Shown here: positions 6,050-38,676 of the stretch, one piece after another
Layout: every line of letters starts with the position of its first letter
How positions within the stretch are numbered: the stretch's first letter is position 1
Assembly: GCA_964487875.1 (NCBI GenBank)
Contig: CAZASL010000001.1
Span: 1 to 38,676 of the forward strand
Direction of reading: 5' to 3'
From: an uncultured Candidatus Saccharibacteria bacterium
GTDB taxonomy: Bacteria; Patescibacteriota; Saccharimonadia; Saccharimonadales; UBA4665
DNA: 38,676 bases
Notes under the pieces: model-generated
Told to the model about the DNA's origin: nothing
Seen by the model: the letters and a program-made list of their open reading frames with translations, nothing else
The model's database searches: none
Program-made: the position numbers and the translations under genes

Positions 6050-6051
6050 CC

Positions 6052-7862: not shown

Positions 7863-8316
7863 TTACATCTGAAGAATCTTTTGGTTTATGGTGAGTTCTG
7901 AAGACAAATCTTTTATATAAAGTATAGTTCCAGACCAATCCAGCCATTGACCCAATTACTAATGCCAGCCCATAGTAAAAGTGTGCATAATGTACCAGAA
8001 CTACGACAATAGTGCTGTTAATCGCAAGCCCGGCAAAAGCACTAGCATGGAACTTTACAATTTTATTACGGATTGGAATGTGATGATGGCCAATAAAAGC
8101 CCAGAAGTTGTTTCCGGCGAACGTAGCTAACAAAGCAGTTTCGGCTCCAATAATTTGCGATACAAGAATCGGTGCCCCTAGAAAGTCGTAGATTAAAGCT
8201 AACATCCCGTAGTTAACCAAAAACCCAATGCCTCCCACGACAAGAAAACGTATCTTATCGTAACCAATCAGTTTATAATAGCTGGTAACTAATGCTGGAT
8301 GAGGTTTAATGGACAT
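7855..8316 (-). CDS. GtrA-family membrane protein (second copy)
   Basis: 153 aa. RFLVVGGIGFLVNYGML and WNYTLYKRFVF GtrA-like motifs, four hydrophobic segments. 8-nt overlaps with the flanking GT2 genes at both ends. Confidence 0.8.
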   Translation of the reverse strand: MSIKPHPALVTSYYKLIGYDKIRFLVVGGIGFLVNYGMLALIYDFLGAPILVSQIIGAETALLATFAGNNFWAFIGHHHIPIRNKIVKFHASAFAGLAINSTIVVVLVHYAHFYYGLALVIGSMAGLVWNYTLYKRFVFRTHHKPKDSSDVIN

Positions 8317-13321: not shown

Positions 13322-13377
13322 AGTAACAGCGTGGCTATCTTAGTTGGTGGTGGTAGACAACCAATGCTTTATAATCA

Positions 13378-15015
13378 ATGCTAGCCTTCGTTTATGACAG
13401 GCACAGTGTTATGTTGATGCTTTTACTCTACTTTATATCTTTTCTGGGATTTGGTTTCTATTGCGCGCTCATAGCTCAGCAAAAAGGATTGTTCCCAAAA
13501 CAATTCTTATATATAGCCTCCGTAACCTTCAGCTTAGTTGTATCGTATCTACTCTTTTACATCTATGCCTACAGTTATCATTTAGGCCATTTTTTAGCGC
13601 TAACATTTTTGGTAGCGGGGTCGGCCGGCTGGCTCTTAAGTATTCGGGCGCTACAACACGACAAGCAAGCTTGGAAAATAACAAAGGTTTTCTTTGTTAC
13701 CCCACTACTGGCTGTCGTTGGATTGCTAATTATATATACTCACTTCTTTTACGGTTGCTATGGTCAGCCTTCGGTAATAGATGGGTGGGGAGAGATACAG
13801 AACCCTGCTTTTTGCCAAATTGCAGTCTTACCGATTGATAATGCACTCCCCTACATATACGGACAAAACGTTCTGACAAACCACGCACGGTCGCAGGTGA
13901 TTGACTGGGGCATTACCGATCGACCGCCACTTCAGATAGGTGCCGTTTTACCAATTTTAGACTTCGAGCAACACGCACAAGTCTATGTACGCTACGCTCA
14001 GTACAATCTATTCTCGACTTTTCTACAATTGAGCTGGGTTGGAGTGATGTGGGGTGCGTTGAACATATTGCTCAAGAATCGTCGGCATATATGGGGCTTG
14101 TTGGTGGGGTTTTCTACAGTCGGTTTCTTTTATCTTAATTCTATTTTTGTATGGCCAAAGCTGATGGCGGCCAGTCTGACCGTTTTCGGTGTAATGATGT
14201 TGATTAACGCAAACGACAAAACCAGACGGTTGTTCGACTACCGTTACGCAGTAATGTCAGCAATGGCTATAACACTTGGGTTGCTGGCCCACGGCGGGGT
14301 GATATTTACGTTATTAGCTCTTGTTCCCATTATGCTTTACGATTTCTGGCGCCATACACCCCGGCCAAAGGTAAGCTGGCAACATGCGGCTGCGGCCATA
14401 ATGGTTGCTTTAATACTGCTCTTGCCCTGGCAGCACATAAAAAGCCAGCTTACTAGCCACGATCGCCTTATAAAATGGCAGTTTGCAGGTGTGGTTTCGG
14501 CTGATGACCCACGCGGGACTTTGCAGACTATAGAACAGCAGTACCAGAAACTAACATTTCATGAATGGATACAAGATAAAAAGGTCAATGCCCAAACTCT
14601 ATATAATGGTGGCGTAAACTCCAATTGCGCATTGAGCTTTAGGACAGTTTTTGACAGGTGCAATATGGCTACATGGCGCGATCGCACTTTCTTTAGTACG
14701 TTTTTTGCTTTTGAGTTTTTCATTTTTGGGTTCTTGATAGTTCTATGGCAGTTACTCCACCGCTCACTCGACAAAGTCGACAAAACCCTACTCTGGATTG
14801 GGTTCATGACTATGGCTGTTTGGGTTCTGTTAATGTTCCTGCCAGGCAGTACGGTAGTTCACCAAGGCTCCTATGCCACTATGATACTTCTGTTTATTCT
14901 TTTCGGTAAAAAAATAGCAGCACTGCCCCGAACAGTTTTCGCTACTCTAATTAGTCTGCAACTATTGTTATTTTATCTAGCCTGGCTGCGACCTTTCGGT
15001 ATCCATATTGTGTAG
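13378..15015 (+). CDS. Uncharacterised polytopic membrane protein (545 aa)
   Basis: Long ORF, strongly hydrophobic throughout. One larger loop contains VIDWGITDRPPLQ. No family recognised. Divergent from 12068-13321 across 56 bp. Confidence 0.7.
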   Translation: MLAFVYDRHSVMLMLLLYFISFLGFGFYCALIAQQKGLFPKQFLYIASVTFSLVVSYLLFYIYAYSYHLGHFLALTFLVAGSAGWLLSIRALQHDKQAWKITKVFFVTPLLAVVGLLIIYTHFFYGCYGQPSVIDGWGEIQNPAFCQIAVLPIDNALPYIYGQNVLTNHARSQVIDWGITDRPPLQIGAVLPILDFEQHAQVYVRYAQYNLFSTFLQLSWVGVMWGALNILLKNRRHIWGLLVGFSTVGFFYLNSIFVWPKLMAASLTVFGVMMLINANDKTRRLFDYRYAVMSAMAITLGLLAHGGVIFTLLALVPIMLYDFWRHTPRPKVSWQHAAAAIMVALILLLPWQHIKSQLTSHDRLIKWQFAGVVSADDPRGTLQTIEQQYQKLTFHEWIQDKKVNAQTLYNGGVNSNCALSFRTVFDRCNMATWRDRTFFSTFFAFEFFIFGFLIVLWQLLHRSLDKVDKTLLWIGFMTMAVWVLLMFLPGSTVVHQGSYATMILLFILFGKKIAALPRTVFATLISLQLLLFYLAWLRPFGIHIV

Positions 15016-15034
15016 CGGATTGGCATAGCACCTC

Positions 15035-15063
15035 TGGACAACGGCCTGTTATCTTGTTATAAT
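15035..15063 (+). promoter_or_regulatory. Strong sigma70-like promoter with extended -10
   Basis: TGGACA (15035-15040), 17-nt spacer ending in TGT, TATAAT (15058-15063). Followed by AAGGG and the ATG at 15095. Confidence 0.6.
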
Positions 15064-15094
15064 TTTTACAAGAACACTTAAGGGTAAAAATAAA

Positions 15095-15658
15095 ATGAAG
15101 ATTCATCGCCTCGGTTCAAAAAAGACTATTATCGCTGCCGTAGTGCTGGTATTAGTTGTGGGTGCTGGCGTAATTTTGCATACGCATAGCGTGCATAAAG
15201 CCCAAAGCACCAGCGGCACCATACCTAACAGCAAGAAAGGGTCTTCTAGCTCTAATGCCAACGACAAAAAAACAGCAAGCGACCAAACTGATAGTTCATC
15301 AGCCCCCAACAAAACCCAGGAGGCTAGTTCGCCTGCAAGTAGTGATGCTTCTGGCACTTTGATAGCACCGTTTGGAACATTTGTCAGCAACCACAAGCCT
15401 GGTCAAAGTGGTTCACCAACTAGTGAGCAATCAGTTTGTAACACGACTCCTGGTGCGTCGTGCGATATTCAATTCACTAGTGGTGGCATCATGAAAAGCT
15501 TGGGCTCACAAACAGCTAACAGCAACGGCGCAACCTATTGGTCTTGGGACATAAAAGGTGGCACACTCGCACCAGGGACTTGGAAAGTGACAGCAGTGGT
15601 AAAATTAAATGGGCAGACTAAAACAACTGCTGACCCAATGTCACTCGAGGTACAATAA
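15095..15658 (+). CDS. Membrane-anchored/secreted protein with Ser-rich linker and small two-Cys beta-rich C-terminal domain
   Basis: 187 aa. N-terminal TM (IIAAVVLVLVVGAGVIL), a ~70-aa S/T/N/D-rich low-complexity linker, then a ~90-aa domain with two Cys. The stop TAA overlaps the next ATG (TAATG). Confidence 0.7.
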   Translation: MKIHRLGSKKTIIAAVVLVLVVGAGVILHTHSVHKAQSTSGTIPNSKKGSSSSNANDKKTASDQTDSSSAPNKTQEASSPASSDASGTLIAPFGTFVSNHKPGQSGSPTSEQSVCNTTPGASCDIQFTSGGIMKSLGSQTANSNGATYWSWDIKGGTLAPGTWKVTAVVKLNGQTKTTADPMSLEVQ

Positions 15659-17361
15659 TGATAAAAGGCACTTTTGGTAAAATAGTTTCTTTGGCTGCGA
15701 TAGGCGTTCTAGCTGCTTTGGTTGGGCTGTTACCACTGGCCTCTGCTGACTACAATCATAACTTAATAATAGCCGATTCTATATTCAATAATACTAACAC
15801 CTTGAATATAGGTCAGATAAATAGTTTTCTTAATCAATTCCCGAGTAGTTGTATAAGCCCTAATAACGGCTTCTCTTCTCCCGACCCAACTGGTTATTCT
15901 CCAGGTACCAGTTTCACATTTGGCGCTAACGTCACGGCGGGCCAGGTTATTTATGATGCAGCCCAGGCCTATGGGTTGAACCCCCAGGTTTTGCTTACTA
16001 CCTTACAAAAAGAACAGAGTCTGGTTACAGGATCAGCTGGTTGTTATCCCAATTCACCCGACCCCGGGAGCGCTACACCTATGACTAATGCTTGTGGGAA
16101 TGGGACACGTAATTGTACGAACGCTTGCGTACACTCTGGTGGCTGTATCCCCATTGCAGTAGGTTATGGCTGTCCTAATTATTGTGACGTGACTGATGAG
16201 GGTTTTAGTAAACAAGTTGTATTAGCCGCTTGGTTATTTAAATTTAGCCAACAGCGATCGCTCGGCAACACCGGTTGGAATGTCCAGGCCAACAATTTTC
16301 CGCAGAATGGGGATCATTGGGATAATTCTGACGATCCCCACACAGACTATAGTGGACCAATGACGCAGGGTAACCTGAGCCGTGGTAACGGTAGCCCAGT
16401 AACTTTCTACGATGGCTATACGACCATAGATGGACAGAGCGTTCATATGGACAGTGGCGCCACTGCGGCTTTGTACACATATACGCCTCATTTCTCTGGT
16501 AACCAAAGCTTCATTACCATTTTTACCAACTGGTTCGGTTCGACGACTTCCGACATAAATAATGATTATTTAACCTTCATACGGCTCAATCATAGTTCCG
16601 GCAACGTTGAAGACGTGGGCTATTCGTCCATAAGTAACTATGCTAATCTTTCGGGTTATTACTTGACCGGTTATCCGGCTGTGCCGGGTGATGGCTCAGT
16701 GGTGCCGCGATATTGGGTGAATGGCGATTTGGTTTTCTTGCGGCTCAATCACAGCTCGGGAAACACTGAGCTGGTTTCCTATAGCGCCACCAGCGGGTTC
16801 CACCAGATAGTAAATTACTCTCTTACGGGTTATCCGGCGGTTATACCTGATGGCTCAGTGGTGCCGCTGTTCTGGCCGCCGAATGGCGATTTGGTTTTCT
16901 TACGGCTCAATCACAGCTCGGGTAACGTCGAGTTGATTTCCTATAGCGTAGGCAGTAACTTCAAGAAAATTGTTAACTATCAATTGACCGGTTATCCGGC
17001 TGTGCCAGGTGATGGCTCAGTGGTGCCGCTGTTCTGGCCGAATGGAGACTTGGTGTTTGTCCGCCTAAACCACAACTCGGGTAACGTCGAGTTAGTATCG
17101 TACAGCGCTAGCAGCGGCTTTAAGAAAATCGATAATTATACATTGACTGGTTATCCGGCAGTGCCGGGCGATGGTGCTGTAGTGCCACGATTCAAGCCGA
17201 ATGGCGATCTTAGTTTTATCCGGCTTAATGACGGTTCGGGCAACGCACAGGTTGTAACGTACAGCGCTGCCAGTAATTACAAGCAGCTAGTTAGCATAAA
17301 GTACACTGGCTACCCGGCAGTTACACCTGATGGCTCAGTGGTGCCGCTCTTCACCCGTTAA
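15658..17361 (+). CDS. Secreted protein: Cys-rich N-terminal domain (possible lysozyme-like) + five ~53-aa repeats (beta-propeller-like)
   Basis: 567 aa. Signal peptide ending LPLASA/DY. YGLNPQVLLTTLQKEQSLVTG segment and 10 Cys in the N-terminal 300 aa. The C-terminal 267 aa are five tandem repeats. Confidence 0.75.
   Translation: MIKGTFGKIVSLAAIGVLAALVGLLPLASADYNHNLIIADSIFNNTNTLNIGQINSFLNQFPSSCISPNNGFSSPDPTGYSPGTSFTFGANVTAGQVIYDAAQAYGLNPQVLLTTLQKEQSLVTGSAGCYPNSPDPGSATPMTNACGNGTRNCTNACVHSGGCIPIAVGYGCPNYCDVTDEGFSKQVVLAAWLFKFSQQRSLGNTGWNVQANNFPQNGDHWDNSDDPHTDYSGPMTQGNLSRGNGSPVTFYDGYTTIDGQSVHMDSGATAALYTYTPHFSGNQSFITIFTNWFGSTTSDINNDYLTFIRLNHSSGNVEDVGYSSISNYANLSGYYLTGYPAVPGDGSVVPRYWVNGDLVFLRLNHSSGNTELVSYSATSGFHQIVNYSLTGYPAVIPDGSVVPLFWPPNGDLVFLRLNHSSGNVELISYSVGSNFKKIVNYQLTGYPAVPGDGSVVPLFWPNGDLVFVRLNHNSGNVELVSYSASSGFKKIDNYTLTGYPAVPGDGAVVPRFKPNGDLSFIRLNDGSGNAQVVTYSAASNYKQLVSIKYTGYPAVTPDGSVVPLFTR
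16558..17358 (+). repeat. Five in-frame tandem coding repeats (159-162 nt each)
   Basis: Consensus NGDLVFLRLNHSSGNVELVSYSA.S.FK.I.NY.LTGYPAVPGDGSVVPLFWP. GGTTATCCGGC recurs at 16669, 16828, 16990 and 17149, with a diverged copy (GGCTACCCGGC) at 17308. The 40-mers at 16669 and 16990 differ at 1 nt. Confidence 0.9.
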
Positions 17362-17365
17362 TATA

Positions 17366-18664
17366 CTATTTCTTTTTAAGACAGGTTGTCCAAGCAGCAT
17401 CGGGGTTGATGGCGAAACAGCCTGTTGACCCTGTGTTCAGGCTCTCGAATTTCTTAGCTTGTACGGCAAAGTTAGTATCTTTTAGTCGCGGGACGCTAAA
17501 AGCAAAAGGGAAAAATACTAGATACATAACCAATAAGCTGGCGGCCAGCTTGGCAGTGAAGTCTTTCCTGTAGTTCGTAAGGGCCAGCAAGGCCACCAAC
17601 CAGCCAAAGAACGGGACTAAGAAATATCGTTCGCCGAAAGCATTAAACTGTAGCATTTTCCAAAACTGAACTATCGGAACCGTTTGGGCTCTTAGAAATG
17701 AGGTTACGTATAAGACCGCGCAGAAAAAAATTATAGTTCTGATCTCTAGCCGCGTCTTAGCAAATGCTATTAACGCCAGGAGAATAAAGACTATGCCTAA
17801 AGCATACATCTGTGGCGAGCTTGCTACACTTTCATTTGTTACAATTCTTTCACCCAGTACTGGCAACACAAAAAACCTCATGCCGGTTATCTCGACAGGT
17901 CTATTATAGTTACTTACTATTGATCTTGATTGATGAATTACGCTGGAACTTTGATGAGAATGGTGTGTATACACAAAAATCTGCACGAGAGCACAGACCA
18001 AAAGAATCGTAAATTTTATGTAAGTTTCAGGTAGTCTGGCTCGTCTGTGGACTACTAAGAAGAAAGCGGTTAGTAACAAAACGCTGGAGAAAGGACCGGT
18101 CATGCCCATAAGAAGTAAAATGATCGAGTCAAATACAAGCCAGCGTTTTGCGCTGGACGGGTTTAGTCGTGTTAAAACAAGAATAGACGCAATAGCTAGA
18201 TACCATATGCTATTAGTCAAGTTGCCGAATACCTCTGTCACATTTGGCATTAAGAGTAGTAGCACGGTCAGGATAAGCTTTTTGAAATCTCCCTCTTTTT
18301 CTAAAAGTGTTTTGTCTGACCAGAGAACAAAGATAGGCAGGATCATTATAGACACAGAAACAAGATTAAATATAAGAGGCCCGATAGATATAGGGAACTT
18401 AACTGCTATCAGGGCCACTAGTCTTGGATATGTCTGTAAGAAGTCTGAGTATGAATGAGCAAGACTGCTTATCCCTTGTATATACGCATCTCGATAAAAG
18501 ACAGCGAAGTCTTCTGCCCAAAATTGAGGATGTAGTAATAGCTCAGGACGTCTTAGACAAATCACTATGATCGATAGGCCGCAAATTAGAAAAGCTTTTC
18601 TTAATAGCGAAAGTCCAGTGAACTTATGCCACGTGTCTTCTAAATACTCTCGTGCGTTTACCAT
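17366..18664 (-). CDS. Uncharacterised polytopic membrane protein, paralogue of 12068-13321 (GT-C-like candidate)
   Basis: 432 aa. Same motif set as the 417-aa protein (HPQFWAED, EVFGNLTNSIWYLA, AKRWLVFD...GMTGPF, GERYFLVP, CFAINPDAAWTTCL). Last gene of the wzm operon. Confidence 0.75.
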   Translation of the reverse strand: MVNAREYLEDTWHKFTGLSLLRKAFLICGLSIIVICLRRPELLLHPQFWAEDFAVFYRDAYIQGISSLAHSYSDFLQTYPRLVALIAVKFPISIGPLIFNLVSVSIMILPIFVLWSDKTLLEKEGDFKKLILTVLLLLMPNVTEVFGNLTNSIWYLAIASILVLTRLNPSSAKRWLVFDSIILLLMGMTGPFSSVLLLTAFFLVVHRRARLPETYIKFTILLVCALVQIFVYTHHSHQSSSVIHQSRSIVSNYNRPVEITGMRFFVLPVLGERIVTNESVASSPQMYALGIVFILLALIAFAKTRLEIRTIIFFCAVLYVTSFLRAQTVPIVQFWKMLQFNAFGERYFLVPFFGWLVALLALTNYRKDFTAKLAASLLVMYLVFFPFAFSVPRLKDTNFAVQAKKFESLNTGSTGCFAINPDAAWTTCLKKK

Positions 18665-21583: not shown

Positions 21584-22795
21584 TTATTCCTCTCCTTTCG
21601 ACCAATCACCAAATAGATTTATTTTGCCAACAGAATTATCAGGGTTATCGTTTGGCATAACATTAAGCTTAAAGCCATTGTATATATGGTCGTGCTCTTC
21701 TGTTAGATCATTGTTAAATACAGCTGCCGTAATCTTATATTCGCCGTCACTGAAGGGAAGTTTCTTAATCTTGTACGATATCTGATCATTTGAAGTGAAT
21801 GCCTGACCCATACTGTTAGGCCCCGATATATTTATTCCGTCGACATCTTCAAACATTAGTCCTGTTGTTATAGGCAGCTTCTTTTTTGATTCAAGTATAA
21901 ATCGTATTTCGATATCATCACCTTGTTTCACTCGATTGCCAGACGTTTCCTTGCCATTCGACAATATCTCAATTTTCTTAATTTTTACCTTACCGTCGCC
22001 CCATCTACGAAGGGTATGGCTATCGGCCTTTTCTCCTGAGGCTTGTTGGTTCGCGTTTATCTCTTGGTAGACAGCGGCCGCCTCGCTTGGCGTATAAATA
22101 CCTTTTAGCTCGCCCATGTCGATAACGGCGGCTCTGTCGCAGAATTTTCTGATTGACTGCATGTCGTGGGTAACTAGCACTATGGTGCGTTTATTCTCTT
22201 TCATCTCGGCAAATACTTTGTTGCATTTCTTCTGGAAAGCCGCGTCCCCCACGGCTAGTACTTCGTCCAGTACTAATATGCTAGTCTTGGCCCTAATCGC
22301 GATCGAAAACGCCAACCTCACCTGCATGCCAGACGAGTAATTCTTCAGTTTTTGGTCCATGAATTTGCGCAGTTCGGCGAACTCCACGATGTCGCGGTAC
22401 ATTGCCTTCATCTCTTTGCGATTAAAGCCCAGCAAAGCGCCATTGAGGTAGACGTTTTCGCGGCCGGTCAGCTCCGGGTTAAAGCCCACGCCGAGCTCGA
22501 TGAACGGTGTCAGCTTGCCGTTGACCTGGATGCTACCCTTGCTCGGCGAATATATGCCGGCCAGCATTTTCAGTAACGTGCTTTTGCCGCTGCCGTTGCG
22601 GCCGACGATGCCGAAGAACTCGCCCTTTTTGACTTCAAATGAGACGTCTTTTAGGGCTTCTTGCTTCTCAAAAGTGCGCTTGCTGCGATAGAAGTTAATG
22701 ACCATGCTCTTGATGGAGTTATTTTTTTCGTGCGGCAAGCGGAAGGTCTTGCTGACGTTGTCGACTTTGATGGCAATGTCATTTTGGTCGCTCAT
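21584..22795 (-). CDS. wzt: Polysaccharide ABC exporter ATP-binding protein (Wzt/TagH type) with C-terminal beta-rich extension
   Basis: 403 aa. Walker A GRNGSGKST, signature YSSGMQVRLAFS, Walker B ILVLDEVLAVGD. A ~140-aa C-terminal extension from RRWGDGKVKIKKIEIL is consistent with a Wzt_C-type carbohydrate-binding domain. Confidence 0.9.
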   Translation of the reverse strand: MSDQNDIAIKVDNVSKTFRLPHEKNNSIKSMVINFYRSKRTFEKQEALKDVSFEVKKGEFFGIVGRNGSGKSTLLKMLAGIYSPSKGSIQVNGKLTPFIELGVGFNPELTGRENVYLNGALLGFNRKEMKAMYRDIVEFAELRKFMDQKLKNYSSGMQVRLAFSIAIRAKTSILVLDEVLAVGDAAFQKKCNKVFAEMKENKRTIVLVTHDMQSIRKFCDRAAVIDMGELKGIYTPSEAAAVYQEINANQQASGEKADSHTLRRWGDGKVKIKKIEILSNGKETSGNRVKQGDDIEIRFILESKKKLPITTGLMFEDVDGINISGPNSMGQAFTSNDQISYKIKKLPFSDGEYKITAAVFNNDLTEEHDHIYNGFKLNVMPNDNPDNSVGKINLFGDWSKGEE

Positions 22796-23595
22796 TAGAT
22801 ATTCTCCGCGAAGTATTTAGATTCCCGCCGGAAGTACGCCAGCCCGCCAATCAGCACCACAACCACGATGACAAACGGAATTAGCTTGTACCAGCCGCCT
22901 TCGAACAATGTGTAAGCCGTGGTGGTTTCTTTGGTTATGGCCACATAGCGGGCATCCTGAATGGTCTGGGCCATGGGGCTGAGCAGAATGACCTTCTGCA
23001 GGGTCAGGCTCGGAATCAGCGACAGCGGGTACAGAATGGGTGTCATGTAAAAGCCGGCCTGCAATATGACCTCCCAGATGTAGTTGATGTCGCGGAACTT
23101 GACAAACATGGCCGACAGGAACAGCGAACAACCCAACGCGAACAGGTAAACTTCCAGGAAAATCAACGGCAGTATTAGCACGGACGCCGAAAAGGTTACG
23201 TGGTTGAGAGCGATGAAGACGCCGACCACTAGTAAGTTAAGAATGAAGTTAATCAGCGCTGAGATGCTGCTGGAAAAGACGATCATCCAGCGCGGAATGC
23301 GGATTTTTCTGATAAGATCGCCGCGGCCGACTATGGAGCTCAGGCTCTGGCTGGTCATCTCCAAAAAGAAGTTCCAAATGACGATGCCCAGCAGCAGGTA
23401 GACCGGATAATGCGGAATGCTAGCGCCCAGGCGTAGGAATTTGACGAAAACGACATACAAAATCAGAAACATTAGCAACGGCCGTAGCAGTGACCAGGCG
23501 TAGCCCAGGACTGACCCCTGATAGCGCAGCTTGAAGTCGGTGCGAACCAACTCGCTGAGCAGAGCTCGATTTTGCTTCGAGAAAAATCGTTTCAT
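22795..23595 (-). CDS. wzm: Polysaccharide ABC exporter permease (ABC-2 / Wzm type)
   Basis: ATG at 23595 (MKRFFSKQNRALLSELVRTDFKLRYQGSVLGYAWSLLRPL) gives ~266 aa. The TTG at 23652 would overlap the divergent GT2. TAATG overlap with the wzt start. Confidence 0.88.
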   Translation of the reverse strand: MKRFFSKQNRALLSELVRTDFKLRYQGSVLGYAWSLLRPLLMFLILYVVFVKFLRLGASIPHYPVYLLLGIVIWNFFLEMTSQSLSSIVGRGDLIRKIRIPRWMIVFSSSISALINFILNLLVVGVFIALNHVTFSASVLILPLIFLEVYLFALGCSLFLSAMFVKFRDINYIWEVILQAGFYMTPILYPLSLIPSLTLQKVILLSPMAQTIQDARYVAITKETTTAYTLFEGGWYKLIPFVIVVVVLIGGLAYFRRESKYFAENI

Positions 23596-23605
23596 GTTTT
23601 GGGTT

Positions 23606-23634
23606 ATTATAGAGGAAATGAATAGTTTCGTCGA
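23606..23634 (-). promoter_or_regulatory. Possible promoter of the wzm operon (near-leaderless)
   Basis: On the minus strand: TCGACG (23634-23629), 17-nt spacer, TATAAT (23611-23606), then 10 nt to the ATG at 23595 with no SD. Confidence 0.4.
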
Positions 23635-24656
23635 TGGCTGAGCAGTCCGCAAATATCGCCGTGGTGGTGCCGAATTGGAATGGTGCCGACCATTTGGCGG
23701 CCTGCCTGGATTCCCTGTTGGCGCAATCGCTGGCCTGCCGCGTGATCGTCGTTGATAACGGCTCTGTGGATGGTTCGCTGAAATTGCTGGAAAAATACTC
23801 GGGTATTGAGGTGATTTTGCACGAGCGGAACAAGGGCTTTGCGGGTGGTGTTAATGCCGGTTTTCGGCGGGCGATAGATGACGGGCTGAAATACGTGGCC
23901 TCATTCAATAATGACGCCGTGGCCGATAAAGATTGGCTAAAGGAGCTGGTGGCCGAGCTGGACGCTAACCCGAAAGTTGGCATCGCCACCTCCAAAATCC
24001 TTAATGGCAGTGGCAAAAAGCTCGATAGCACTGGTGATTACTTAACAAATTGGGGTCTGCCCTATCCGCGTGGTCGCGGTGAGTCCGATCTGGACAAATA
24101 CGACGGTTCGACCGAAGTGTTCGCGGCCAGTGGCGGCGCCAGCTTGTACCGCGTGAAAATGTTGCAGGAAGTTGGCCTGTTCGACGAAGACTTTTTTGCT
24201 TATTACGAAGATGTTGACCTCAGTTTCCGGGCCCAGCTGGCCGGCTGGAAGGTCCGATTTGTGCCAAGCGCCGTGGTCCGCCACCAAATTGGCGCTACTT
24301 CCGGCAAACTCAAGGGCTTCACGGCCTACCAAACCATGAAGAACCAGCCGCTGGTGCTATACAAAAACCTGCCGACTAAGCTGTGGTGGACGGTCGGCTG
24401 GCGCTTCACGCTGGCCCACACCGCGTTTTTTCTGCGGGCGATTGGCCGCGGTCATGGCTGGGCAGCTTTAAAGGGCGACCTGCGCGGCACATATTTAATA
24501 TTTAAGAAACATTTTGTGCGCAAGCGGTTGCAGGATAGCCGCAAAGTTAAAGATAGTTACATCTGGGGCATGATGGTACACGACCTGCCGCCTAACGCCC
24601 GCGGTTTGCGCCGGCTACGCGCTGTGTGGTGGAAACTGCGAGGCAAGCATGGCTAG
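23634..24656 (+). CDS. GT2 glycosyltransferase, WbbL/rhamnosyltransferase-like
   Basis: 340 aa. IAVVVPNWNGADHL, VIVVDNGSVDGS, NKGFAGGVN, FNNDAV, FFAYYEDVDLSFR. Confidence 0.85.
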   Translation: MAEQSANIAVVVPNWNGADHLAACLDSLLAQSLACRVIVVDNGSVDGSLKLLEKYSGIEVILHERNKGFAGGVNAGFRRAIDDGLKYVASFNNDAVADKDWLKELVAELDANPKVGIATSKILNGSGKKLDSTGDYLTNWGLPYPRGRGESDLDKYDGSTEVFAASGGASLYRVKMLQEVGLFDEDFFAYYEDVDLSFRAQLAGWKVRFVPSAVVRHQIGATSGKLKGFTAYQTMKNQPLVLYKNLPTKLWWTVGWRFTLAHTAFFLRAIGRGHGWAALKGDLRGTYLIFKKHFVRKRLQDSRKVKDSYIWGMMVHDLPPNARGLRRLRAVWWKLRGKHG

Positions 24657-31799: not shown

Positions 31800-32582
31800 C
31801 TATTCACCACTTGGTGCAACTGTATTAGAATCAAACACCTGGGCCCCGCTGGAGTCAGTCAAATAAAGGCGAGAGTAGTCAGTTAAGCCCGAATACTCTA
31901 GCCTGGCTTGGTACGTTTTGCCGTTCAATTGCGCAGTGAAGTTAACTGTGTTTGAGGTGCTAGAGCTGTTACGATTGTGCGGGACGGGAGCCACATTAGT
32001 GATAGAAATAGTATTGGCTTGGGGTGCGAAGTCGAAAAAGAACTGCTGGAGATTATTAACTTGAGTAGCAGACACACCAATATTCAGAATTGAACTTAAG
32101 CCGGTAAAAACAATGCTATTTTTTGATCGGGGCCGCTGCGACTGGGTTTTTAACAATGCTTGCTTTTGGTCTTCCGGTAGGTTTTTTGAAAGGATTTTTT
32201 TAGGTGTGAAGACAAACACCCTACCAACTAATTTCTCACCGTTATTATCAGATATGCTATTCACCTTAACGTAATATTGATAGCTAGCGGTCATCGGTGT
32301 TTTCAGATTGACCACCAGCGTCTTCCCTTGCACCTCGTAGGACTTAACAACGGAATAGCTAGATGTAACTGACAAACCTTTGCTAGAAAGCTGTCGATTA
32401 TAGTTGATTTTCAAAAAAGGCGAGATGGTCGCAACGTTTTTCGTGCTCGGGTTTGTACTAACTACGCGAAAATGCCTGGACAAATAAAACTGGTAGCCCA
32501 AAAATACCAATAAAGCGACACCGGCGACAATGAGTACTAGTCGAATCCCGGTCCTATATTTATCGTAAAACCCTAAGTCCAT
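31800..32582 (-). CDS. Bitopic membrane protein with Ig-like (Big_5/SbsA-like) ectodomain
   Basis: 260 aa. N-terminal TM (IRLVLIVAGVALLVFLGY), then VVSTNPS...ATISPFLKINYN...GKTLVVNLKTPM...YYVKVNSISDNNGEKL, the pattern of SbsA-type Ig-like domains. AGGA SD. Last gene of the VirB4 operon. Confidence 0.6.
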   Translation of the reverse strand: MDLGFYDKYRTGIRLVLIVAGVALLVFLGYQFYLSRHFRVVSTNPSTKNVATISPFLKINYNRQLSSKGLSVTSSYSVVKSYEVQGKTLVVNLKTPMTASYQYYVKVNSISDNNGEKLVGRVFVFTPKKILSKNLPEDQKQALLKTQSQRPRSKNSIVFTGLSSILNIGVSATQVNNLQQFFFDFAPQANTISITNVAPVPHNRNSSSTSNTVNFTAQLNGKTYQARLEYSGLTDYSRLYLTDSSGAQVFDSNTVAPSGE

Positions 32583-32590
32583 AGCTATTC

Positions 32591-34399
32591 CTAATCCGGT
32601 GAAACGTAACCGGTTATCCCACCATCATAATACCCGTTTCCGGTCTCGGTGGATACAATGGAGCCGCCTGGGTATGGGCCGTCACCCTGGTCGCCGCCAA
32701 TGTATGTTGCTGTATTGCCGGACGAAGACACAAATATATTAACGTGGCTAGACCCATGTATCGCTAAATCGCCGGGCTTCGGAGTATAACCGCTACTGGC
32801 GGGGTGCCAGTGGAAGTTTTTGTTTTGTTCACCGATCGACTGCATATCAGGGACATATGCCACGTTCCAGTCAGAGCTGTCTAGGGGATAATTTGCTTGA
32901 TTGTAAACCCAACTGGCAAAATCAGCACACCATTCCTCGGTTCGATTCTGGCTATATTTAAGGTACCCATCCTGCGCGAAACTCGGATGCGGGTAGCCCG
33001 GTTTTGACTGCCACAGCTTTAATTCCGCTTGGGCGGTGCAGACGATGCTCTGCCGTGTGGGGCTTAGCCCCGTTGTAGCTGCGTCAGTACCGTTGCAATT
33101 AACAACGCCGCCACATGGAGAATTAACGCCGCCACCGGCGGCAGAGGAGCCATAGTCCTGCAAGATACTATTGGCATAATCTATACGGTTTTGGAGCTGA
33201 GGATCACCCGGACGCTCGAACTCGTTGCTAAAAATAGTAGCTGCGTCGGCCGCGGTATTGGCATTCTTGATATGTGCGAGTACAGAACTGTCATCTTCTC
33301 CCGCACCTGGGCCGCCCGTTAATTCAAGCCAAACGTAATCAAGCTGCACGCCCAGATCGGTTACCGGCTTATTTTCTTTTTGGGCAAATGCCTCCAGAGC
33401 TGTTAACCGACCACCACCCCACTGCGCCAAGTAGCCACCGGGCGAACTGGGGTCCCAGCCTGATTCCTGACCAAAGTTTCCGTCTATGCCAGCTGATTGT
33501 GCCGGGGTCAAACCTTTACTTACAAAGTAATTGAAGATCTTCTGTTTGTTATCATTACCGACCAAAGCAGTCTCTGTGGGTGAACCACCACTGGTGCATG
33601 AACAGCTTGCGGGTGGTTGGCTGGCCGCAGGAGGCGGCGTAGCAGATGCCGAGCCAGCGTCTTTGACCATCTCATCAATCGATGGTTTCAAGCTGGCTGC
33701 GTATTGCGCGGCTTGAGAGGGCGTGTCGTATGCGCCGGAAAAGGTCTCTAATTTGCCGTCATTAAGTGACTCTCCATACTGGTTCCGTAAATATGAAAAT
33801 ATATCACCGCCACCGGCGGCATTCAGGTTTTCCGGTGCGGTGTAGTCGACACTAGCCTTCACCGACGTCCACTTGTACCACAAGCTGGGCTGGCTCGAAA
33901 CCACAGGCGATATATATATATGAGGTTGGTTCGATAAAGCTGCTCTGTCAAAAATATTATTGGCGTCGGTAACCTGGCGGGTTGTAGCTGTTCCGAGTGA
34001 AGTCTCATTTTGAGCGATTGCCACAACCAGAAAAGGATTGATATTGGAGTTTTTTGCGCTTGCCACCATTGTTGCGCCCAGACCGTTGAGCGGGCTCTTA
34101 GGCTGCTCTTTCTTCACAAATGTATCTATTGCGTTAGCCATGACCGTTGGGCTAAGGTTGGGGAAAGTAGTCCCATCTGGGGAGCCCGACCCCGCAACCA
34201 ACTTACCTATACCAGCACTGGGATCACTATCACAGGATCCTGCTACCCAATTGGGCCAGTAGTTGAGCGCTTTGATCTCGCTCGGCTGCAAGGGATCAGC
34301 AAAAACTGGTCTAAGCTGGGCAAAAGCTATAAAAAACGCCAGCAGGACAAAAGTAATGATTAAGAGTTTCCTGGCAAGGAATATGTGTAGGTTTTTCAT
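32591..34399 (-). CDS. Secreted three-domain peptidoglycan hydrolase (GH73-like glucosaminidase + phage-tail-lysozyme-like + CHAP)
   Basis: 602 aa with a signal peptide. INPFLVVAIAQNETSLGT (GH73-like E-S/T). SAGIDGNFGQESGWDP (tail-lysozyme-type). EEWCADFASWVY ... GDLAIHGSSHVNIFV (CHAP Cys/His). ATGA overlap with the upstream gene, AAGAGGAA SD. Confidence 0.75.
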   Translation of the reverse strand: MKNLHIFLARKLLIITFVLLAFFIAFAQLRPVFADPLQPSEIKALNYWPNWVAGSCDSDPSAGIGKLVAGSGSPDGTTFPNLSPTVMANAIDTFVKKEQPKSPLNGLGATMVASAKNSNINPFLVVAIAQNETSLGTATTRQVTDANNIFDRAALSNQPHIYISPVVSSQPSLWYKWTSVKASVDYTAPENLNAAGGGDIFSYLRNQYGESLNDGKLETFSGAYDTPSQAAQYAASLKPSIDEMVKDAGSASATPPPAASQPPASCSCTSGGSPTETALVGNDNKQKIFNYFVSKGLTPAQSAGIDGNFGQESGWDPSSPGGYLAQWGGGRLTALEAFAQKENKPVTDLGVQLDYVWLELTGGPGAGEDDSSVLAHIKNANTAADAATIFSNEFERPGDPQLQNRIDYANSILQDYGSSAAGGGVNSPCGGVVNCNGTDAATTGLSPTRQSIVCTAQAELKLWQSKPGYPHPSFAQDGYLKYSQNRTEEWCADFASWVYNQANYPLDSSDWNVAYVPDMQSIGEQNKNFHWHPASSGYTPKPGDLAIHGSSHVNIFVSSSGNTATYIGGDQGDGPYPGGSIVSTETGNGYYDGGITGYVSPD

Positions 34400-37300
34400 T
34401 TTGTTCCTCTTGGTACCTGAACGTGCAAGTGGTTACAGGTATCGTCAAAAGTTGTCCAGCCGCTTGGCAGAGAGGGTGTTGAACCACACTGTGATTGTCC
34501 AAGTGCAGAGCCACTAGGTAAGATCTGTTCGGCGATCTTTATTATTGTTTGGGCCGGAGCATTTCTGCCAGTTATTATTACCCCGTCTAACGACCCGAAG
34601 TCAACCGCATCGCCCGTATAGTGGTAGGATCCAGTAGCATGTCCCTGCCCGTCACTTTCTATGGCTGTCACGCAAACTTGATGATCTTGGCCGACAGTTG
34701 CTATGAGTTGCAAAATGGCAGAACTAACAGGTGCGCCGGCCGTGCCGGGCTTGCCAGCCGCAGCGTCTTGAACATCCTGTTTCACGGACGAGCTTAAACA
34801 GGAAAGGTCAATGTCGCCGTTGCTTAGAATTTGTTGAGCGAGTTGTTGGGCGTTACCAGACACAGGTGCAGTTGCCGAAACCGTGCCGCCAGCGCTTTGT
34901 TGCTGATCTGCCAGATCATAAGATGTCAGGTTGCTGGTGTCGAATAAGCCGCCGGCGCTGCCAACAGTTGCCTTAATTAACAAGCACGGGTTAGTGGTGT
35001 GGTTGACTGGCATGCCGGTGGTCGGGTCATTAGCCGCTGTGCCGACCCAGCCCTTGCCGCCCGGGGAGTTCTGAAAGTCGTGATCATTTTGGTAGGATTG
35101 GGCTGAATTGTCCGAACAATGAGCATTCCAGTAAGCTTCGGGGTCTGTCGGTATAGTACCGTCAGGATAACCGTACTGTGTCACGCCAAACGGGTCCGGT
35201 TGGGCGGCCACCGCAGCGTTGGCCTGGCCGGATAACATAGACCCAAAACCATGACTTATAGCGCTAAGCGGGTTGAGTAAGCTGGCAAGACTACTTTGAG
35301 CGGCCGCCTGGGTACCGAACGGTACGTCCATCGCAACTTTTGAAACCAGGGAATACTGACTATCGGTGCTGAACATGCGCGCAAAAAGCGATTGGTGGGA
35401 AAAAGTCTGCTCTGCTTCATTTTGTTGCCCGTTGATGATCTTGGCGGCCTGCGTGGGCGTTAGTTGCTGCCCGCCCAGACCGGTATTGGCGTAGTCATTG
35501 CCGGACACATCAGAACCGGCTGCCATCATATCGAACTTTCGACCGCCGCTCATATTGCTGCCGAAGGGACTGGGTATCAGCACGGTGATTACTTTTTCGA
35601 AGAATGGCTGCAGGACACTGCCCACCAGAGACGAAATACTGTTAATCGCGCTGCCTACACCTGGGATAGCTTGGATCACACCACCAAATAGGCTGCCGAT
35701 AGTACCGGTAAAGCCAGCTACGCCGTGCGCCAGCGAAGTGACAACGTTGACACCCGGCAAAGCCAAAAACTGATGGGCTGCGTCGAGAGAAGAATTACTC
35801 TGCCCCAACACCTCTTCGCTGCAGACAAGCTGTCCGGCCGGGACGGGTTTACCGTTTGCGCAAATATAATCGTTGGAGTTGTGCGCGGGACCATTTGAGG
35901 CGGCATAGGCCTTACCGGGCAGGATAGAGTTGAGCAGAGAACTCTGGGCAGCCGGGGGACTATTGCCGTCTATAATGTTTTGGTATAGCGGTGTTTGTTC
36001 GGCTGAAGCGGTGCCGCCTTTTTCGGGGTCGGAGGCTGATCCGGGGTTGCCCGGTCCAAGTGAATTGTTCATTGAACCGAGTTCAGTGGCATCGGTGTGA
36101 CCAGTGTGAATCTCATCGGAGTAGCTACGGTACAACATGTAAGTGCTGACGGCAGCTGAGGCGTTTGTAATATAACCAAGTTTGGTGATGGCTGGCCCGG
36201 CGTTACTAGCCAGACTGATAGCATTAGAAGCCGAGGTGATTATATTAACGATGGGGATAGCATCAGCCGCTTGCGAGGCAATACTGCTCAAGCCAATTTT
36301 TTCAAACACTTTCTCAGCAATATATTTCTGAAAACCCTTGTCGCTTATCTCGGTATATTGGGCAACGAGTTTATCGGCATCATCAAGCCCATAAGTGCTG
36401 GCGAGTTGCACTAATGCAGTCCGTACGGCCGTGTCCGTGGCTGGGTTCTCCCGCTCGGTGTAACCGCCTTCCTGATCACTGATCTGTGTGGGCTGGGTAT
36501 CTTCTGGCACGCAGTTTGAGTCAAGCAGGCATTGTATAACGATGCCTAGACTTTGGTTACGTGGTCCGACCACCCGTTGGACCAGGTACAGCTGAGCAGC
36601 CAGCTTTTTTTTATCTTTCTGGTCCGCCAAGGCATCTTTGGTGCCACAGAAAATGATGCAGCGTTTAATGCCATACTTCCCCTCCAATAGCCGGCCGACC
36701 TTGTAGCGGTACATGACCTGTTTCCATCTGGTTTCGTTCTGCATGGCATCGTTGATGGCATTACGCATAGTGGCCCGGTCAGCACGTTGGAAATCACTAT
36801 CCAGTCCCTGTCCGTTAGGACCGATGTTATCGCCGCCCGGATTGCTGCCTGGCGCCTTTAGATACCAGTTCTTGTTGTACTTGTTGTACTTAAATTCGAC
36901 CCCATAATTGGTAGCCAGTTTATTTTCGAGCCGGGCGTTAGCCCATGTCCTATAAAGGTTATTGACCGGTCCGGTACCTTTTATGTCGGCCGTACAGTTT
37001 TTGCTAAGGGTACTGCCACAGTCTTGGTAGCTGGGCAGTGCTTTTGTGATGTAGCCCTTTAGCAAGTTGTTGGTTTCTTTACCCACGGCGTCCTGCGAGC
37101 TGCTGAAGAACCTATTTTGAAGATTGCTGACAATGTGCTCAATCTTCAAGGGTACCAACAGGAAGAAAACCGTCAGGGCTATGCCCACCAAGCCACCACC
37201 GACACCAACACCTACGCCAATGCCTTTCTTGTGCTTAGCGGCTACTTTAATCATATTATTAACACCGCCACTACCAGTGCTGTCTTTAGGATTGAAGTTG

Positions 37301-37548
37301 AAGCCGCCGGCTGTACCGGTGGCACTGCCGCCTTCCGCTGCTGCCAAGCCGCCAGTGGTTGCAGAGCTGCCGGTGCTGCTGCCATCGCCCTGAGGGTTAT
37401 AAAAGCCGTCGCCGGAGCTTTCGGCATTGCGCAGATCTTCTTGCGATCCGGAATCTTTTGGTGGCTGTGCCGGATTTTTGTGTAGCGTTCCAGAACCAGG
37501 CGAATTATCGTCCGTTGGTTGCTCGGGATCGTATACCGAATTTGCCAT
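34396..37548 (-). CDS. 1050-aa bitopic envelope protein with C-terminal LAS/M15-type zinc peptidase motif
   Basis: ~110-aa Gly/Ser/Asp-rich N-terminal tail, single TM (GLVGIALTVFFLLVPL), ~900-aa ectodomain. The C-terminus carries GSYHYTGDAVDF (SxHxxGxAxD) and CNHLHVQV (HxH). Confidence 0.7.
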   Translation of the reverse strand: MANSVYDPEQPTDDNSPGSGTLHKNPAQPPKDSGSQEDLRNAESSGDGFYNPQGDGSSTGSSATTGGLAAAEGGSATGTAGGFNFNPKDSTGSGGVNNMIKVAAKHKKGIGVGVGVGGGLVGIALTVFFLLVPLKIEHIVSNLQNRFFSSSQDAVGKETNNLLKGYITKALPSYQDCGSTLSKNCTADIKGTGPVNNLYRTWANARLENKLATNYGVEFKYNKYNKNWYLKAPGSNPGGDNIGPNGQGLDSDFQRADRATMRNAINDAMQNETRWKQVMYRYKVGRLLEGKYGIKRCIIFCGTKDALADQKDKKKLAAQLYLVQRVVGPRNQSLGIVIQCLLDSNCVPEDTQPTQISDQEGGYTERENPATDTAVRTALVQLASTYGLDDADKLVAQYTEISDKGFQKYIAEKVFEKIGLSSIASQAADAIPIVNIITSASNAISLASNAGPAITKLGYITNASAAVSTYMLYRSYSDEIHTGHTDATELGSMNNSLGPGNPGSASDPEKGGTASAEQTPLYQNIIDGNSPPAAQSSLLNSILPGKAYAASNGPAHNSNDYICANGKPVPAGQLVCSEEVLGQSNSSLDAAHQFLALPGVNVVTSLAHGVAGFTGTIGSLFGGVIQAIPGVGSAINSISSLVGSVLQPFFEKVITVLIPSPFGSNMSGGRKFDMMAAGSDVSGNDYANTGLGGQQLTPTQAAKIINGQQNEAEQTFSHQSLFARMFSTDSQYSLVSKVAMDVPFGTQAAAQSSLASLLNPLSAISHGFGSMLSGQANAAVAAQPDPFGVTQYGYPDGTIPTDPEAYWNAHCSDNSAQSYQNDHDFQNSPGGKGWVGTAANDPTTGMPVNHTTNPCLLIKATVGSAGGLFDTSNLTSYDLADQQQSAGGTVSATAPVSGNAQQLAQQILSNGDIDLSCLSSSVKQDVQDAAAGKPGTAGAPVSSAILQLIATVGQDHQVCVTAIESDGQGHATGSYHYTGDAVDFGSLDGVIITGRNAPAQTIIKIAEQILPSGSALGQSQCGSTPSLPSGWTTFDDTCNHLHVQVPRGTK

Positions 37549-37612: not shown

Positions 37613-38676
37613 TTACCGTGTTGAGCCAGTGCTGCCGGGAGATAGCCGTTCACCTAGGTCAATGGTGCCCTGCATCTGGTCCAGATTGCTACCTTCTGCC
37701 GGTGCCGGTGGCCCTGGCTGGCCAGTCTGAATACCAGCTTGCTCGGCGGCATTGATCTGGGCGACCTGTTCAGGATTGGTGGTAATCAGGCTGGTTTCGG
37801 TTGGGCTGGCTACTACTTGGATGTGAACGTGGTTTTGGCCGGCAAAGAACAGGCCCTGCCCGACCGGGAACTGGCTGAGTCGTTTCTTTTCTTCGCTGGT
37901 AAGTTTGAAGACGTCGGTCAAGACATCGACGGCGCTCGGCGACTGCTTGAGCAGGAACTGCATAGAGGCATTGGCCACAATCGCCCGTCCCATCCGCGAA
38001 CCCATAAAGTCTTCCACGTCCTGCGTCACCGTCGTCACGCCCAGGTTGTATTTGCGGGCCCGTTTGGCGAGAGAGAACAGGAAGTTTGCCGAATCCTCAT
38101 ACTTCATCAACTGCCAGGCCTCGTCGACGATCAAAATGCGGCGTTTCTGGTCGGTTTTGGTCTTATTCCAGATGTAATTCAGCACGATGTACATCGCTAC
38201 CGGCCGCAGTTCATCCTCCAGGTCGCGCAGGTTGAAGACCACCATCGGGTTGTTAATATCAATGTTGCTCTGCTGGCTGAAGATACCGGCGAAGGTGCCG
38301 GTGGTGTATTTGCGCAAGCGCTGGGCCAGCTGCGGGCCGGTGCCGCCCATGTGCAGCAGCGTGTCGTACAAGTCGGCAATGGTCGGCGGTGTGCCAGTGT
38401 GCGTGAGCGGGTCGTTAGTGATGCCGGCTTTAGCGTAGGTTTCTATGAGTGCGGCATCCAGGTCGGCCTCTTCACTTGGAGCTAGGGCGGGCATAAGTGT
38501 GGCATTGCCGCCGAGCATTTGGGCCTGGGCGCCGCCCATCATAAGGCGCAACAGGCCGTGCAGCGTTATAAGGTTGGAGCGCAGGGCGTTATCGGCCTCT
38601 TCGGTATCGACGACTTTTGGCAAGTCGAAGGGGTTTATACGCGTTTGGCTGTTCAGGCTGAGCCGCACGTAAGCGC
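37613..38676 (-). CDS. virB4: VirB4/TrbE/TraE-family type IV secretion ATPase, C-terminal part (5' end beyond window)
   Basis: Frame open to the window edge (..AYVRLSLNSQTRINPFDL). Walker B RRILIVDEAWQLM, NLGVTTVTQDVEDF. Pro/Gly/Gln-rich ~55-aa C-terminal tail. Confidence 0.85.
   Translation of the reverse strand, partial: AYVRLSLNSQTRINPFDLPKVVDTEEADNALRSNLITLHGLLRLMMGGAQAQMLGGNATLMPALAPSEEADLDAALIETYAKAGITNDPLTHTGTPPTIADLYDTLLHMGGTGPQLAQRLRKYTTGTFAGIFSQQSNIDINNPMVVFNLRDLEDELRPVAMYIVLNYIWNKTKTDQKRRILIVDEAWQLMKYEDSANFLFSLAKRARKYNLGVTTVTQDVEDFMGSRMGRAIVANASMQFLLKQSPSAVDVLTDVFKLTSEEKKRLSQFPVGQGLFFAGQNHVHIQVVASPTETSLITTNPEQVAQINAAEQAGIQTGQPGPPAPAEGSNLDQMQGTIDLGERLSPGSTGSTR

Follow-up and report, generated by a model that had tools for sequence, protein, structure and literature searches.

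A virB4-Linked Orphan Protein Family of Saccharibacteria with an Exchangeable C-Terminal Cassette of Predicted Envelope Enzymes

The Gene and Its Operon

Like other Patescibacteria, the parasitic Saccharibacteria live on host bacteria to which they are attached, and the phylum hosting the cultivated Saccharibacteria is Actinobacteria. To our knowledge, Saccharibacteria's type IV secretion system (T4SS) is the first one reported as essential for growth. We studied a 1050-residue protein encoded at the core of such a T4SS cluster, in a stretch of 38,676 nucleotides from an uncultured Candidatus Saccharibacteria bacterium (assembly GCA_964487875.1, contig CAZASL010000001.1, forward-strand positions 1 to 38,676; hereafter the window). 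The protein joins an orphan body to a tip that is swapped between near-identical proteins, and the finding may bear on what the T4SS of these bacteria carries and on its passage through two cell walls.

The open reading frame (ORF) occupies 34396..37548 on the reverse strand, as do all the features of the operon given below, and a check of the ORF list gave 1050 amino acids from an ATG start plus the stop codon. The start is supported by the conservation of the first Met in all the full-length homologues (75/75) and by the N-terminal motif MAxxVYD. Its stop codon and the ATG of the gene that follows overlap in the 4 nt ATGA (34396-34399). This translationally coupled gene (32591..34399) codes for a 602-aa protein in which a signal or transmembrane (TM) segment is followed by the Pfam domains Glucosaminidase, Phage_lysozyme2, and CHAP, the predicted make-up of a PrgK/CwlT-like multi-domain wall hydrolase. 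On the other side, virB4 ends 64 bases upstream and is truncated by the end of the window, its C-terminal part (TraG P-loop/AAA_10, Pfam E 3.9e-17) being found at 37613..38668. Beyond the operon, on the side opposite to virB4, are recF, dnaN, dnaA, and yidC.

Membrane Topology and Extracellular Body

Residues 1-108 (37225..37548) contain 17% G, 13% S, 10% A, 8% N, 7% D, and 7% P, and in the AlphaFold2 (AF2) model the predicted local distance difference test score (pLDDT) was below 50 over most of residues 1-116. Composition and model thus bear out the disordered Gly/Ser/Asp/Pro-rich cytoplasmic tail of about 110 residues described in an earlier reading of the sequence by a model (the original prediction). 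Five short motifs are kept in this tail (MAxxVYD, DLRxAE, NPxGD, LxxAE, and FNP, with conservation of 55-84%) and they look like docking sites for a cytoplasmic partner, which might, from these motifs, be the ATPase, as was also suggested. Between the relatives P0006 and P0011 the tail shows 22-45% identity, against about 90% in the body, so that it diverges much faster.

The sole TM-grade segment was located in residues 107-144, with a Kyte-Doolittle value of 2.39 and a Hessa dG of -0.66 kcal/mol, and it was delimited as a signal-anchor, N-in, at residues 109-134 (37147..37224). Every other hydrophobic stretch of the protein gave a Hessa dG between +4.5 and +8.8 kcal/mol. Across 80 homologues the anchor was of TM grade in 95%, the stretch equivalent to 415-450 in 7%, and that equivalent to 590-665 in 19%, while the mean net charge was +5.0 just before the TM segment and +0.6 after it. 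Ten Cys are conserved, arranged in sequence-local pairs, and all of them lie in the ectodomain after the anchor. Because of the hydropathy and Hessa values, the charge bias, and the position of the Cys pairs, the protein is predicted to be single-pass, N-in/C-out, and the single TM segment of the original prediction agrees with this. A VirB6-type polytopic channel was considered as a candidate and is largely refuted by the hydropathy, by the Hessa dG, and by the presence of TrbL_3 as a separate gene in related loci.

The extracellular body spans residues 135-880 (34909..37146). In the full-length AF2 model (mean pLDDT 78.4, predicted template modelling score (pTM) 0.77) the ectodomain from ~117 to ~880 was all-alpha, with pLDDT mostly 80-97 and most blocks above 85. 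It had been described as matching no recognised family, and the searches gave the same answer: Pfam, NCBIfam, and PHROG had zero matches covering residues 135-880, phmmer and profile hmmsearch against the PDB sequences gave zero body matches, and tblastn against phage genomes gave none. When the full model was compared with PDB and BFVD by Foldseek, the only credible match was that of Hedgehog-N to the tail; the other matches had a probability of at most 0.15, nearly all at most 0.04, and among the T4SS structures in PDB no solved component was similar. Nor did the body profile match, by hmmsearch or hhalign, any protein of two actinobacterial plasmid conjugation clusters, their T4SS proteins included. 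The family is nonetheless large: a search of 1.84 billion cluster representatives with the profile retrieved 2267 at E<=1e-3, and the 663 clusters at E<=1e-30 set out a large orphan body family for annotation. A word-indexed search gave 88 relatives, and all the 203 relatives retrieved matched the body hidden Markov model.

Two parts of the body are moderately hydrophobic. The first one, residues 406-449 (36202..36333), is a helix-turn-helix with helices at 406-426 and 433-449 and a turn at pLDDT <50 (maximum Kyte-Doolittle 1.33, Hessa +6.8). The second, residues 593-663 (35560..35772), is Gly/Ser/Ala-rich and helical, with a helix-turn-helix at ~600-657, a maximum Kyte-Doolittle of 1.47, a Hessa dG of +4.5 at best, and pLDDT <50 for most of 614-635. 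Within it, at 610-646, is the Gly-rich hydrophobic segment that had been noticed in mid-protein, which is real. The hydrophobicity of this stretch is conserved across the family (median maximum Kyte-Doolittle 1.41), and its sequence (column identity ~0.36) and length (65-107 aa) are not.

The C-Terminal LAS Domain

In LAS metallopeptidases the first metal-ligand motif is H-x(3-6)-D, typically SxHxxGxAxD, the third ligand is a His in a C-terminal HxH or ExxH, and the fold is a central antiparallel sheet packed on helices. Residues 900-1050 (34399..34851) of the protein are a predicted LAS-type zinc peptidase cassette with the Hedgehog/DD-peptidase fold. The stretch GSYHYTGDAVDF at 973-984 reads S974-Y-H976-Y-T-G979-D-A981-V-D983 (34600..34629), an exact SxHxxGxAxD and the putative first zinc-ligand motif. 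CNHLHVQV at 1038-1045 holds H1040-L-H1042 (34423..34431, codons read directly), whose two His would be the third zinc ligand and the catalytic His. Both motifs, which had been pointed out originally, were exactly as described. In an alignment of 21 query-type tails H976, G979, D983, H1040, and H1042 were invariant; the two motifs occurred in all the query-type tails (53/53), which is far beyond chance. The acidic residue D1036, four residues before HxH, was mostly conserved in the same alignment, and we take its offset from HxH to match that of Glu177 of Shh. HxH was placed by AF2 on a strand (1041-1044) which aligns with AHIHCSVK of Shh.

The domain profile gave 29 weak matches (E 0.04-2) among the PDB sequences, all of them LAS proteins, including T5 L-Ala-D-Glu peptidase, Hedgehog-N, LdcB, and VanXY-type carboxypeptidases. 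An AF2 model of the domain only had a pLDDT of 89.2 and a pTM of 0.86, and its best 43 Foldseek matches in PDB were all LAS folds; those named were Hedgehog-N (with a probability up to 1.00), the zinc DD-peptidase of Streptomyces albus (1lbu), ChiX, MepA, and a phage L-alanoyl-D-glutamate peptidase. Structural comparison, which had been proposed for both parts of the protein, therefore led to LAS folds for the C-terminus and to no credible match for the ectodomain. Taking together the invariant ligands, the profile matches, and the fold, the LAS assignment of the original prediction is supported: the C-terminal ~150 aa are a LAS-type domain with intact ligand and catalytic residues and a predicted peptidase function.

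With LAS metallopeptidases such as 1lbu, MepA (M74), ChiX, the phage L-Ala-D-Glu peptidases, VanX/VanY/LdcB, and Hedgehog-N, the cassette shares the H-x6-D and H-x-H pattern and the fold, and it differs from them in that no curated sequence model was matched. NCBIfam contained no credible model for the 1050-aa protein, the only match being MepK at E 0.074. HHalign of the query tail against the VanY-type tails of sister proteins covered a 16-residue motif with a probability of 29%, and the tail was for this reason rejected as a diverged VanY. Since no curated model matched and just these 16 columns aligned, the cassette is predicted to be a distinct and uncurated LAS peptidase subfamily, here set out for annotation.

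An Exchangeable Tail Cassette

In most relatives the homology to the query ends at residue ~881. At this point, after ...LTxxDLAD, there is a Ser/Gly/Thr/Gln linker (residues 881-899, 34852..34908) with pLDDT <50 at 884-892 in the AF2 model, which we regard as the exchange point of the cassette. We classified what follows the junction in the 200 members with an intact body end, these being counts of metagenomic cluster representatives. Among them the body (residues ~125-880) is conserved. Query-type LAS tails were the most frequent (56/200), followed by VanY (40) and M23 (33), and 37 members, about 19%, had no tail (<20 aa). The other tails were NlpC/CHAP-like (9, labelled from sub-threshold Pfam matches), GDSL (8, plus 1 GDSL+NlpC), short tails of 20-99 aa (5), a phospholipase-C-type phosphoesterase (PF04185; 3), and, with 2 members each, a class-A beta-lactamase-like domain, GH5, EEP+M23, and other LAS-type tails.

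The tails differed in 58% of the pairs already at 60-70% body identity. The clearest case was that of P0006 and P0011, whose bodies are 92% identical and which carry LAS and M23 tails: windowed identity falls from ~90% to <25% directly after ...LLTQDDVAD, at the start of the Ser/Gly/Thr linker. The family thus has the trait known from polymorphic toxins, a conserved N-terminal part and a sharp junction with unrelated C-termini among close relatives. The original prediction had taken the peptidase as the defining distal tip of the protein, and in this point it did not hold, given that the peptidase is an optional cassette, which ~19% of the members lack and which in most of the others gives way to unrelated enzymes.

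The tailless forms end 0-18 aa from the same junction. Truncated gene calls were considered as their explanation and rejected on account of this common stop and of locus L002, in which the next gene begins 2 nt later. In three tailless loci the downstream gene carries an M23 module (L002 12609-13979, L015 7337-9403, and L039 7712-10054), and in the M23-tailed locus L025 it is the query-type LAS module that is found in the downstream gene (5860-7146). Domains thus seem to shuffle between the body gene and the adjacent one. Tail-type peptidase cassettes (M23, query-type LAS) are also carried by the downstream genes of L004, L006, L014, and L016.

Conserved Position in the T4SS Cluster and a Known Counterpart

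A scan of GTDB species genomes gave 42 loci, nearly all labelled Saccharibacteria, Saccharimonadales, or Patescibacteria; three had other phylum labels and a few had generic ones. In 33 of the 35 loci having upstream DNA, virB4 ends just upstream of the body gene, so that the suggested link to the VirB4 machine is real. On long contigs the order was a VirB2-like pilin array, TrbL_3 (VirB6), one gene, PrgI (VirB3), a TraC-like gene, VirB4, the body gene, the hydrolase gene or genes, and recF-dnaN-dnaA, TrbL_3 being a separate gene in L002 and L003. The metagenome-assembled genome SRP200132_co1_537 has, besides its virB4-linked copy, a second and very divergent body copy (23% identity) on a short contig (L018, L043).

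A counterpart of the gene is already on record. The T4SS of Southlakia epibionticum ML1 was defined as SEML1_0006-0019 (Wang et al. 2023, PMC10633639), and in it SEML1_0007 (3342 nt, 1113 aa) is a 'hypothetical' gene with transposon sequencing calls GD/ES/ES, listed as essential (Tables S1/S2 of PMC10633639). It is located between VirB4 (SEML1_0008) and the lysozyme-lysozyme-cysteine-protease gene SEML1_0006, near recF-dnaN-dnaA, and has an ECOD Hedgehog/DD-peptidase domain at 951-1105 (PMC10633639). Position, similar length, and type of C-terminal domain are those of the 1050-aa protein. The best structural neighbours of SEML1_0007 were annotated as 'Peptidase M15B' and 'Peptidase M23' (PMC10633639), which fits a family with differing tails. 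A 'peptidase homologue ... immediately downstream of virB4' is mentioned by Quinonero-Coronel et al. (PMC12102498), who found no structural homologue of VirB8, and the system is summarised in a 2025 FEMS review (PMC12857230). The gene and its peptidase domain are consequently on record as an essential and uncharacterised T4SS-cluster gene, and the basic finding is not new. In the literature searched we found no description of the body, the tail exchange, the plasmid homologues, or the pilin-hydrolase fusions. The conserved body with its exchangeable tail, as read from the sequences, the linkage to virB4 and to the downstream lysozyme/CHAP gene, and the relation of the cassette to plasmid conjugation hydrolases and to VirB2-like pilin fusions appear to be new.

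Relatives of the Cassette in Plasmids and Pilin Fusions

When the 1050-aa protein was searched by tblastn against 72,556 plasmids, only residues 886-1050 matched (E 3e-9), in 45 plasmids mostly of Microbacteriaceae (20 of Clavibacter, 6 of Rathayibacter, 4 of Curtobacterium, and others). In plasmid pCT2 of Clavibacter the protein (WP_094131573.1, 387 aa) consists of an N-terminal TM segment, an SLT_3 lysozyme-like domain, and a C-terminal LAS domain with 35% identity to the query cassette over 174 aa (BLASTP, E 1e-20). The cluster of its gene also encodes TcpC, TcpD, and a VirB4-like ATPase (AAA_10), and from its domains the protein is a candidate VirB1/TcpG-type bifunctional wall hydrolase that had escaped annotation. 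In the Curtobacterium plasmid D35 the corresponding gene (WP_258372325.1) comes directly after an annotated ATP/GTP-binding protein, by annotation probably a VirB4-type ATPase, and before a protein annotated with a TraM-recognition domain (like a type IV coupling protein), with a MobF relaxase nearby. Both plasmid proteins (pCT2 8368-9531, L046; D35 7479-8561, L047) are annotated as 'hypothetical', and PLSDB types both plasmids as non-mobilizable despite their T4SS-type genes (TcpC, TcpD, and AAA_10 in pCT2; the TraM-recognition-domain protein and MobF relaxase in D35).

The homology covers the LAS cassette in its whole length, and the GNxQQLA helix, HxxGxAVDF, and DTCNHLH are common to the query and the TM+SLT_3+LAS proteins of Microbacteriaceae. 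The latter are only 360-387 aa long; where the query has its body they have a lysozyme-like domain, and nothing in them resembles residues 135-880 of the query. By sequence, the query cassette and the peptidase half of these actinobacterial conjugation-cluster wall hydrolases are homologous, and the enzyme tip would have been borrowed from the conjugative-plasmid wall hydrolases of Actinobacteria.

With the cassette profile it was also possible to find the domain behind PG_binding_1/PG_binding_3 in P0208 (57% identity), a cluster whose members one source names 'zinc D-Ala-D-Ala carboxypeptidase', and behind an SLT-like domain in P0219. The association with PG_binding_1/PG_binding_3 in P0208 supports a targeting to peptidoglycan. 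Furthermore, P0214 and P0215 join the cassette to VirB2-like T4SS pilin domains, and the origin-proximal array to which they belong also has a pilin-SLT fusion, so that other extracellular parts of the T4SS bear the enzyme too. In two such loci (L048 1513-4741 and L049 238-3466, in the metagenome contigs ERZ17987696/ERZ17987007) there are three proteins of ~345 aa in a row, each with an N-terminal VirB2-like T4SS_pilin domain; their C-termini are a part without a domain on record, a query-type LAS peptidase that is 37% identical to the query tail (P0214), and an SLT lytic transglycosylase.

Proposed Role and Alternatives

Taking into account the topology, the position in the cluster, and the exchange of the tail, we consider it reasonably probable that the protein serves the origin-proximal T4SS of Saccharimonadia as a bitopic accessory subunit, an extracellular scaffold which presents an exchangeable envelope hydrolase. 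The body would belong to the extracellular structure of the T4SS or pilus apparatus and would hold an enzyme, drawn from a shared pool, at the place where the machine crosses peptidoglycan or envelope. The LAS domain would cut peptide stems or cross-links, the co-translated lysozyme-lysozyme-CHAP protein would cut glycan strands and stems, and together they could perforate the wall locally to let the pilus or channel through. Considering that the tail is optional, that it comprises at least 10 enzyme types, some of them lipid- or polysaccharide-directed, and that it is shuffled with the neighbour gene, the enzyme set may be tuned to the envelope to be breached, perhaps including that of the host.

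A self-wall hole-puncher role has been proposed for CwlT, TcpG, PrgK, and TraG (pIP501), and possibly, though with doubt, the protein is another such VirB1-type enzyme, which would cut only the wall of the epibiont for T4SS assembly and use the body as a spacer or anchor. It is encoded in a T4SS cluster and adjoins virB4, its predicted extracytoplasmic cassette is homologous to the actinobacterial conjugation-cluster hydrolases, and a PrgK/CwlT-like multi-domain hydrolase is co-translated with it. Like PrgK (pCF10), TraG (pIP501), CwlT (ICEBs1), and TcpG (pCW3), it combines adjacency to virB4, an N-terminal anchor, and an extracellular domain of the kind that cuts peptidoglycan (summarised in part in PMC12102498). 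These proteins are, however, almost entirely hydrolase domains (CHAP, NlpC/P60, or LytM), and it is the 602-aa neighbour that has precisely their lysozyme plus CHAP make-up, whereas in the query ~745 of the 1050 residues are a non-hydrolase body with an optional and exchangeable LAS domain, and a hydrolase domain is lacking altogether in 37 of 200 members. A conserved body of about 750 aa would be superfluous for a puncher, given that the plasmid TM+SLT+LAS proteins need only 360-387 aa; phospholipase-C-type, GDSL, GH5, and EEP tails have no obvious role in the remodelling of the own murein, and the unrelated tails found on bodies that are 92% identical hint at an external, variable target as the source of selection. 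The conserved body with a sharp junction and unrelated C-terminal enzymes also recalls CdiA-CT, Rhs, LXG, evolved VgrG/PAAR, and phage tail lysins or tape-measure proteins, in which such enzymes are likewise directed to the envelope, and the repertoire (wall peptidase, lipase/esterase-like, phospholipase-type, glycosidase) resembles the effector classes of type VI secretion systems. It is nevertheless quite unlikely that the protein is a polymorphic antibacterial effector whose toxin is released onto or into a host or competitor. It has no sequence or fold similarity to these systems, it is anchored in the membrane by prediction at a fixed place of the core T4SS operon, and ~19% of the members are tailless. 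No variable immunity-like gene follows it either, the next gene in the window being a conserved hydrolase with the ATGA overlap (few other loci were inspected, L002 and L003 among them), and the counterpart gene is essential for growth and not for competition.

The LAS domain could instead be a non-catalytic binding module that tethers the body to peptidoglycan, in the manner of the Hedgehog-N ligand role or of the inactive LytM of PrgK, and for this speak the best structural matches, which are Hedgehog signalling domains, and the lack of a match to curated peptidase models. We hold it as improbable, for conservation extends to all three metal ligands, to the second His of HxH, and to the acidic D1036, and in relatives the same slot is filled with VanY, M23, NlpC/P60-like, and other enzymes, which argues that enzymatic function is what selection keeps. 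The protein might also be a polytopic channel subunit like VirB6, or else a homologue of VirB8 or VirB10. Its bitopic topology and disordered N-tail in the cytoplasm do resemble VirB10 and VirB8, and one could take the two helix-turn-helix stretches of moderate hydrophobicity for additional TM hairpins. This is, even so, hardly credible: VirB6/TrbL proteins have five or more membrane spans, against one TM-grade segment here and in 95% of the homologues, and no Pfam match to them was found, and in the place of the NTF2-like domain and C-terminal beta-barrel of VirB8/VirB10 there is an all-alpha body which resembles no solved T4SS component by Foldseek and no T4SS protein of the two actinobacterial plasmids by profile. 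In a bolder extension, this family would provide the T4SS with a head that breaches envelopes, with a tail (murein peptidase, esterase/lipase-like, phospholipase-C-type, or GH5) matched to the envelope of the actinobacterial host that helps to set the host range, and with the stretches 406-449 and 593-663 inserting into the host membrane, once the wall is open, to make a feeding conduit, by analogy with the hairpins of pore-forming toxins and the translocators of type III secretion systems; we regard it as rather unlikely.

Several points weigh against the scaffold reading. LAS activity, zinc binding, protein location, and interaction with the T4SS are predictions from sequence and model. The Foldseek matches of the LAS domain are marginal (best E 2e-3, TM-scores 0.31-0.49), and the Pfam models M15, M74, and VanY were unmatched, with no Pfam family at E<=1 for either the whole protein or the 170-aa tail. 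For the body no relative of known function could be detected, and its designation as a structural T4SS part comes from synteny and from the essentiality of the counterpart gene, SEML1_0007, whose equivalence was drawn from position, length, and domain annotation. The statistics of the tail census ignore kinship among the representatives, and part of its labels are the sub-threshold ones. Two loci, L012 and L045, carry the body gene without virB4 upstream, although the gene directly downstream of it is even there a lysozyme/CHAP or lysozyme/NlpC-P60 one. Finally, the target may be the own wall, that of the host, or both: the diversity of the tails, their recent exchanges, and the existence of lipid- and polysaccharide-directed variants lean towards the host, and the descent from conjugative 'hole punchers' leans towards the own wall. 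The transformable S. epibionticum ML1 offers a concrete genetic handle on the target of wall cutting, the limit of host range, and the role of the body.

Other Features of the Loci and the Window

Upstream of the body gene in the two loci without virB4 there are, in L012 (4839-7874), a CDP-alcohol phosphatidyltransferase at about 1 kb and, in L045 (4704-7394), a 923-aa protein without Pfam match. In the window, the operon ends, ahead of recF, with a gene (31800..32582) for a 260-aa protein with a TM segment and an immunoglobulin-like domain (Big_5), a positional match to SEML1_0004/0005. No tRNA genes were found in the window, and the G+C of the region of the 1050-aa gene is unremarkable; a dip to 0.39 is seen at 20-22 kb, against ~0.45-0.53 elsewhere.

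A large surface-polysaccharide cluster occupies 21-25743 of the window. It comprises a nucleotidyl transferase, a UDP-glucose dehydrogenase, three epimerase/dehydratases, GT2 and GT4 glycosyltransferases, a methyltransferase, a Wzm/Wzt-type ABC exporter (21584-23652), and a YfhO-like membrane protein (9030-11276). Inside it are three large ORFs (417, 545, and 567 aa; 12068-17361) without Pfam match at E<=1e-4, and at 17366-18664 an ORF of 432 aa whose only Pfam match is a sub-threshold one to DUF2933.

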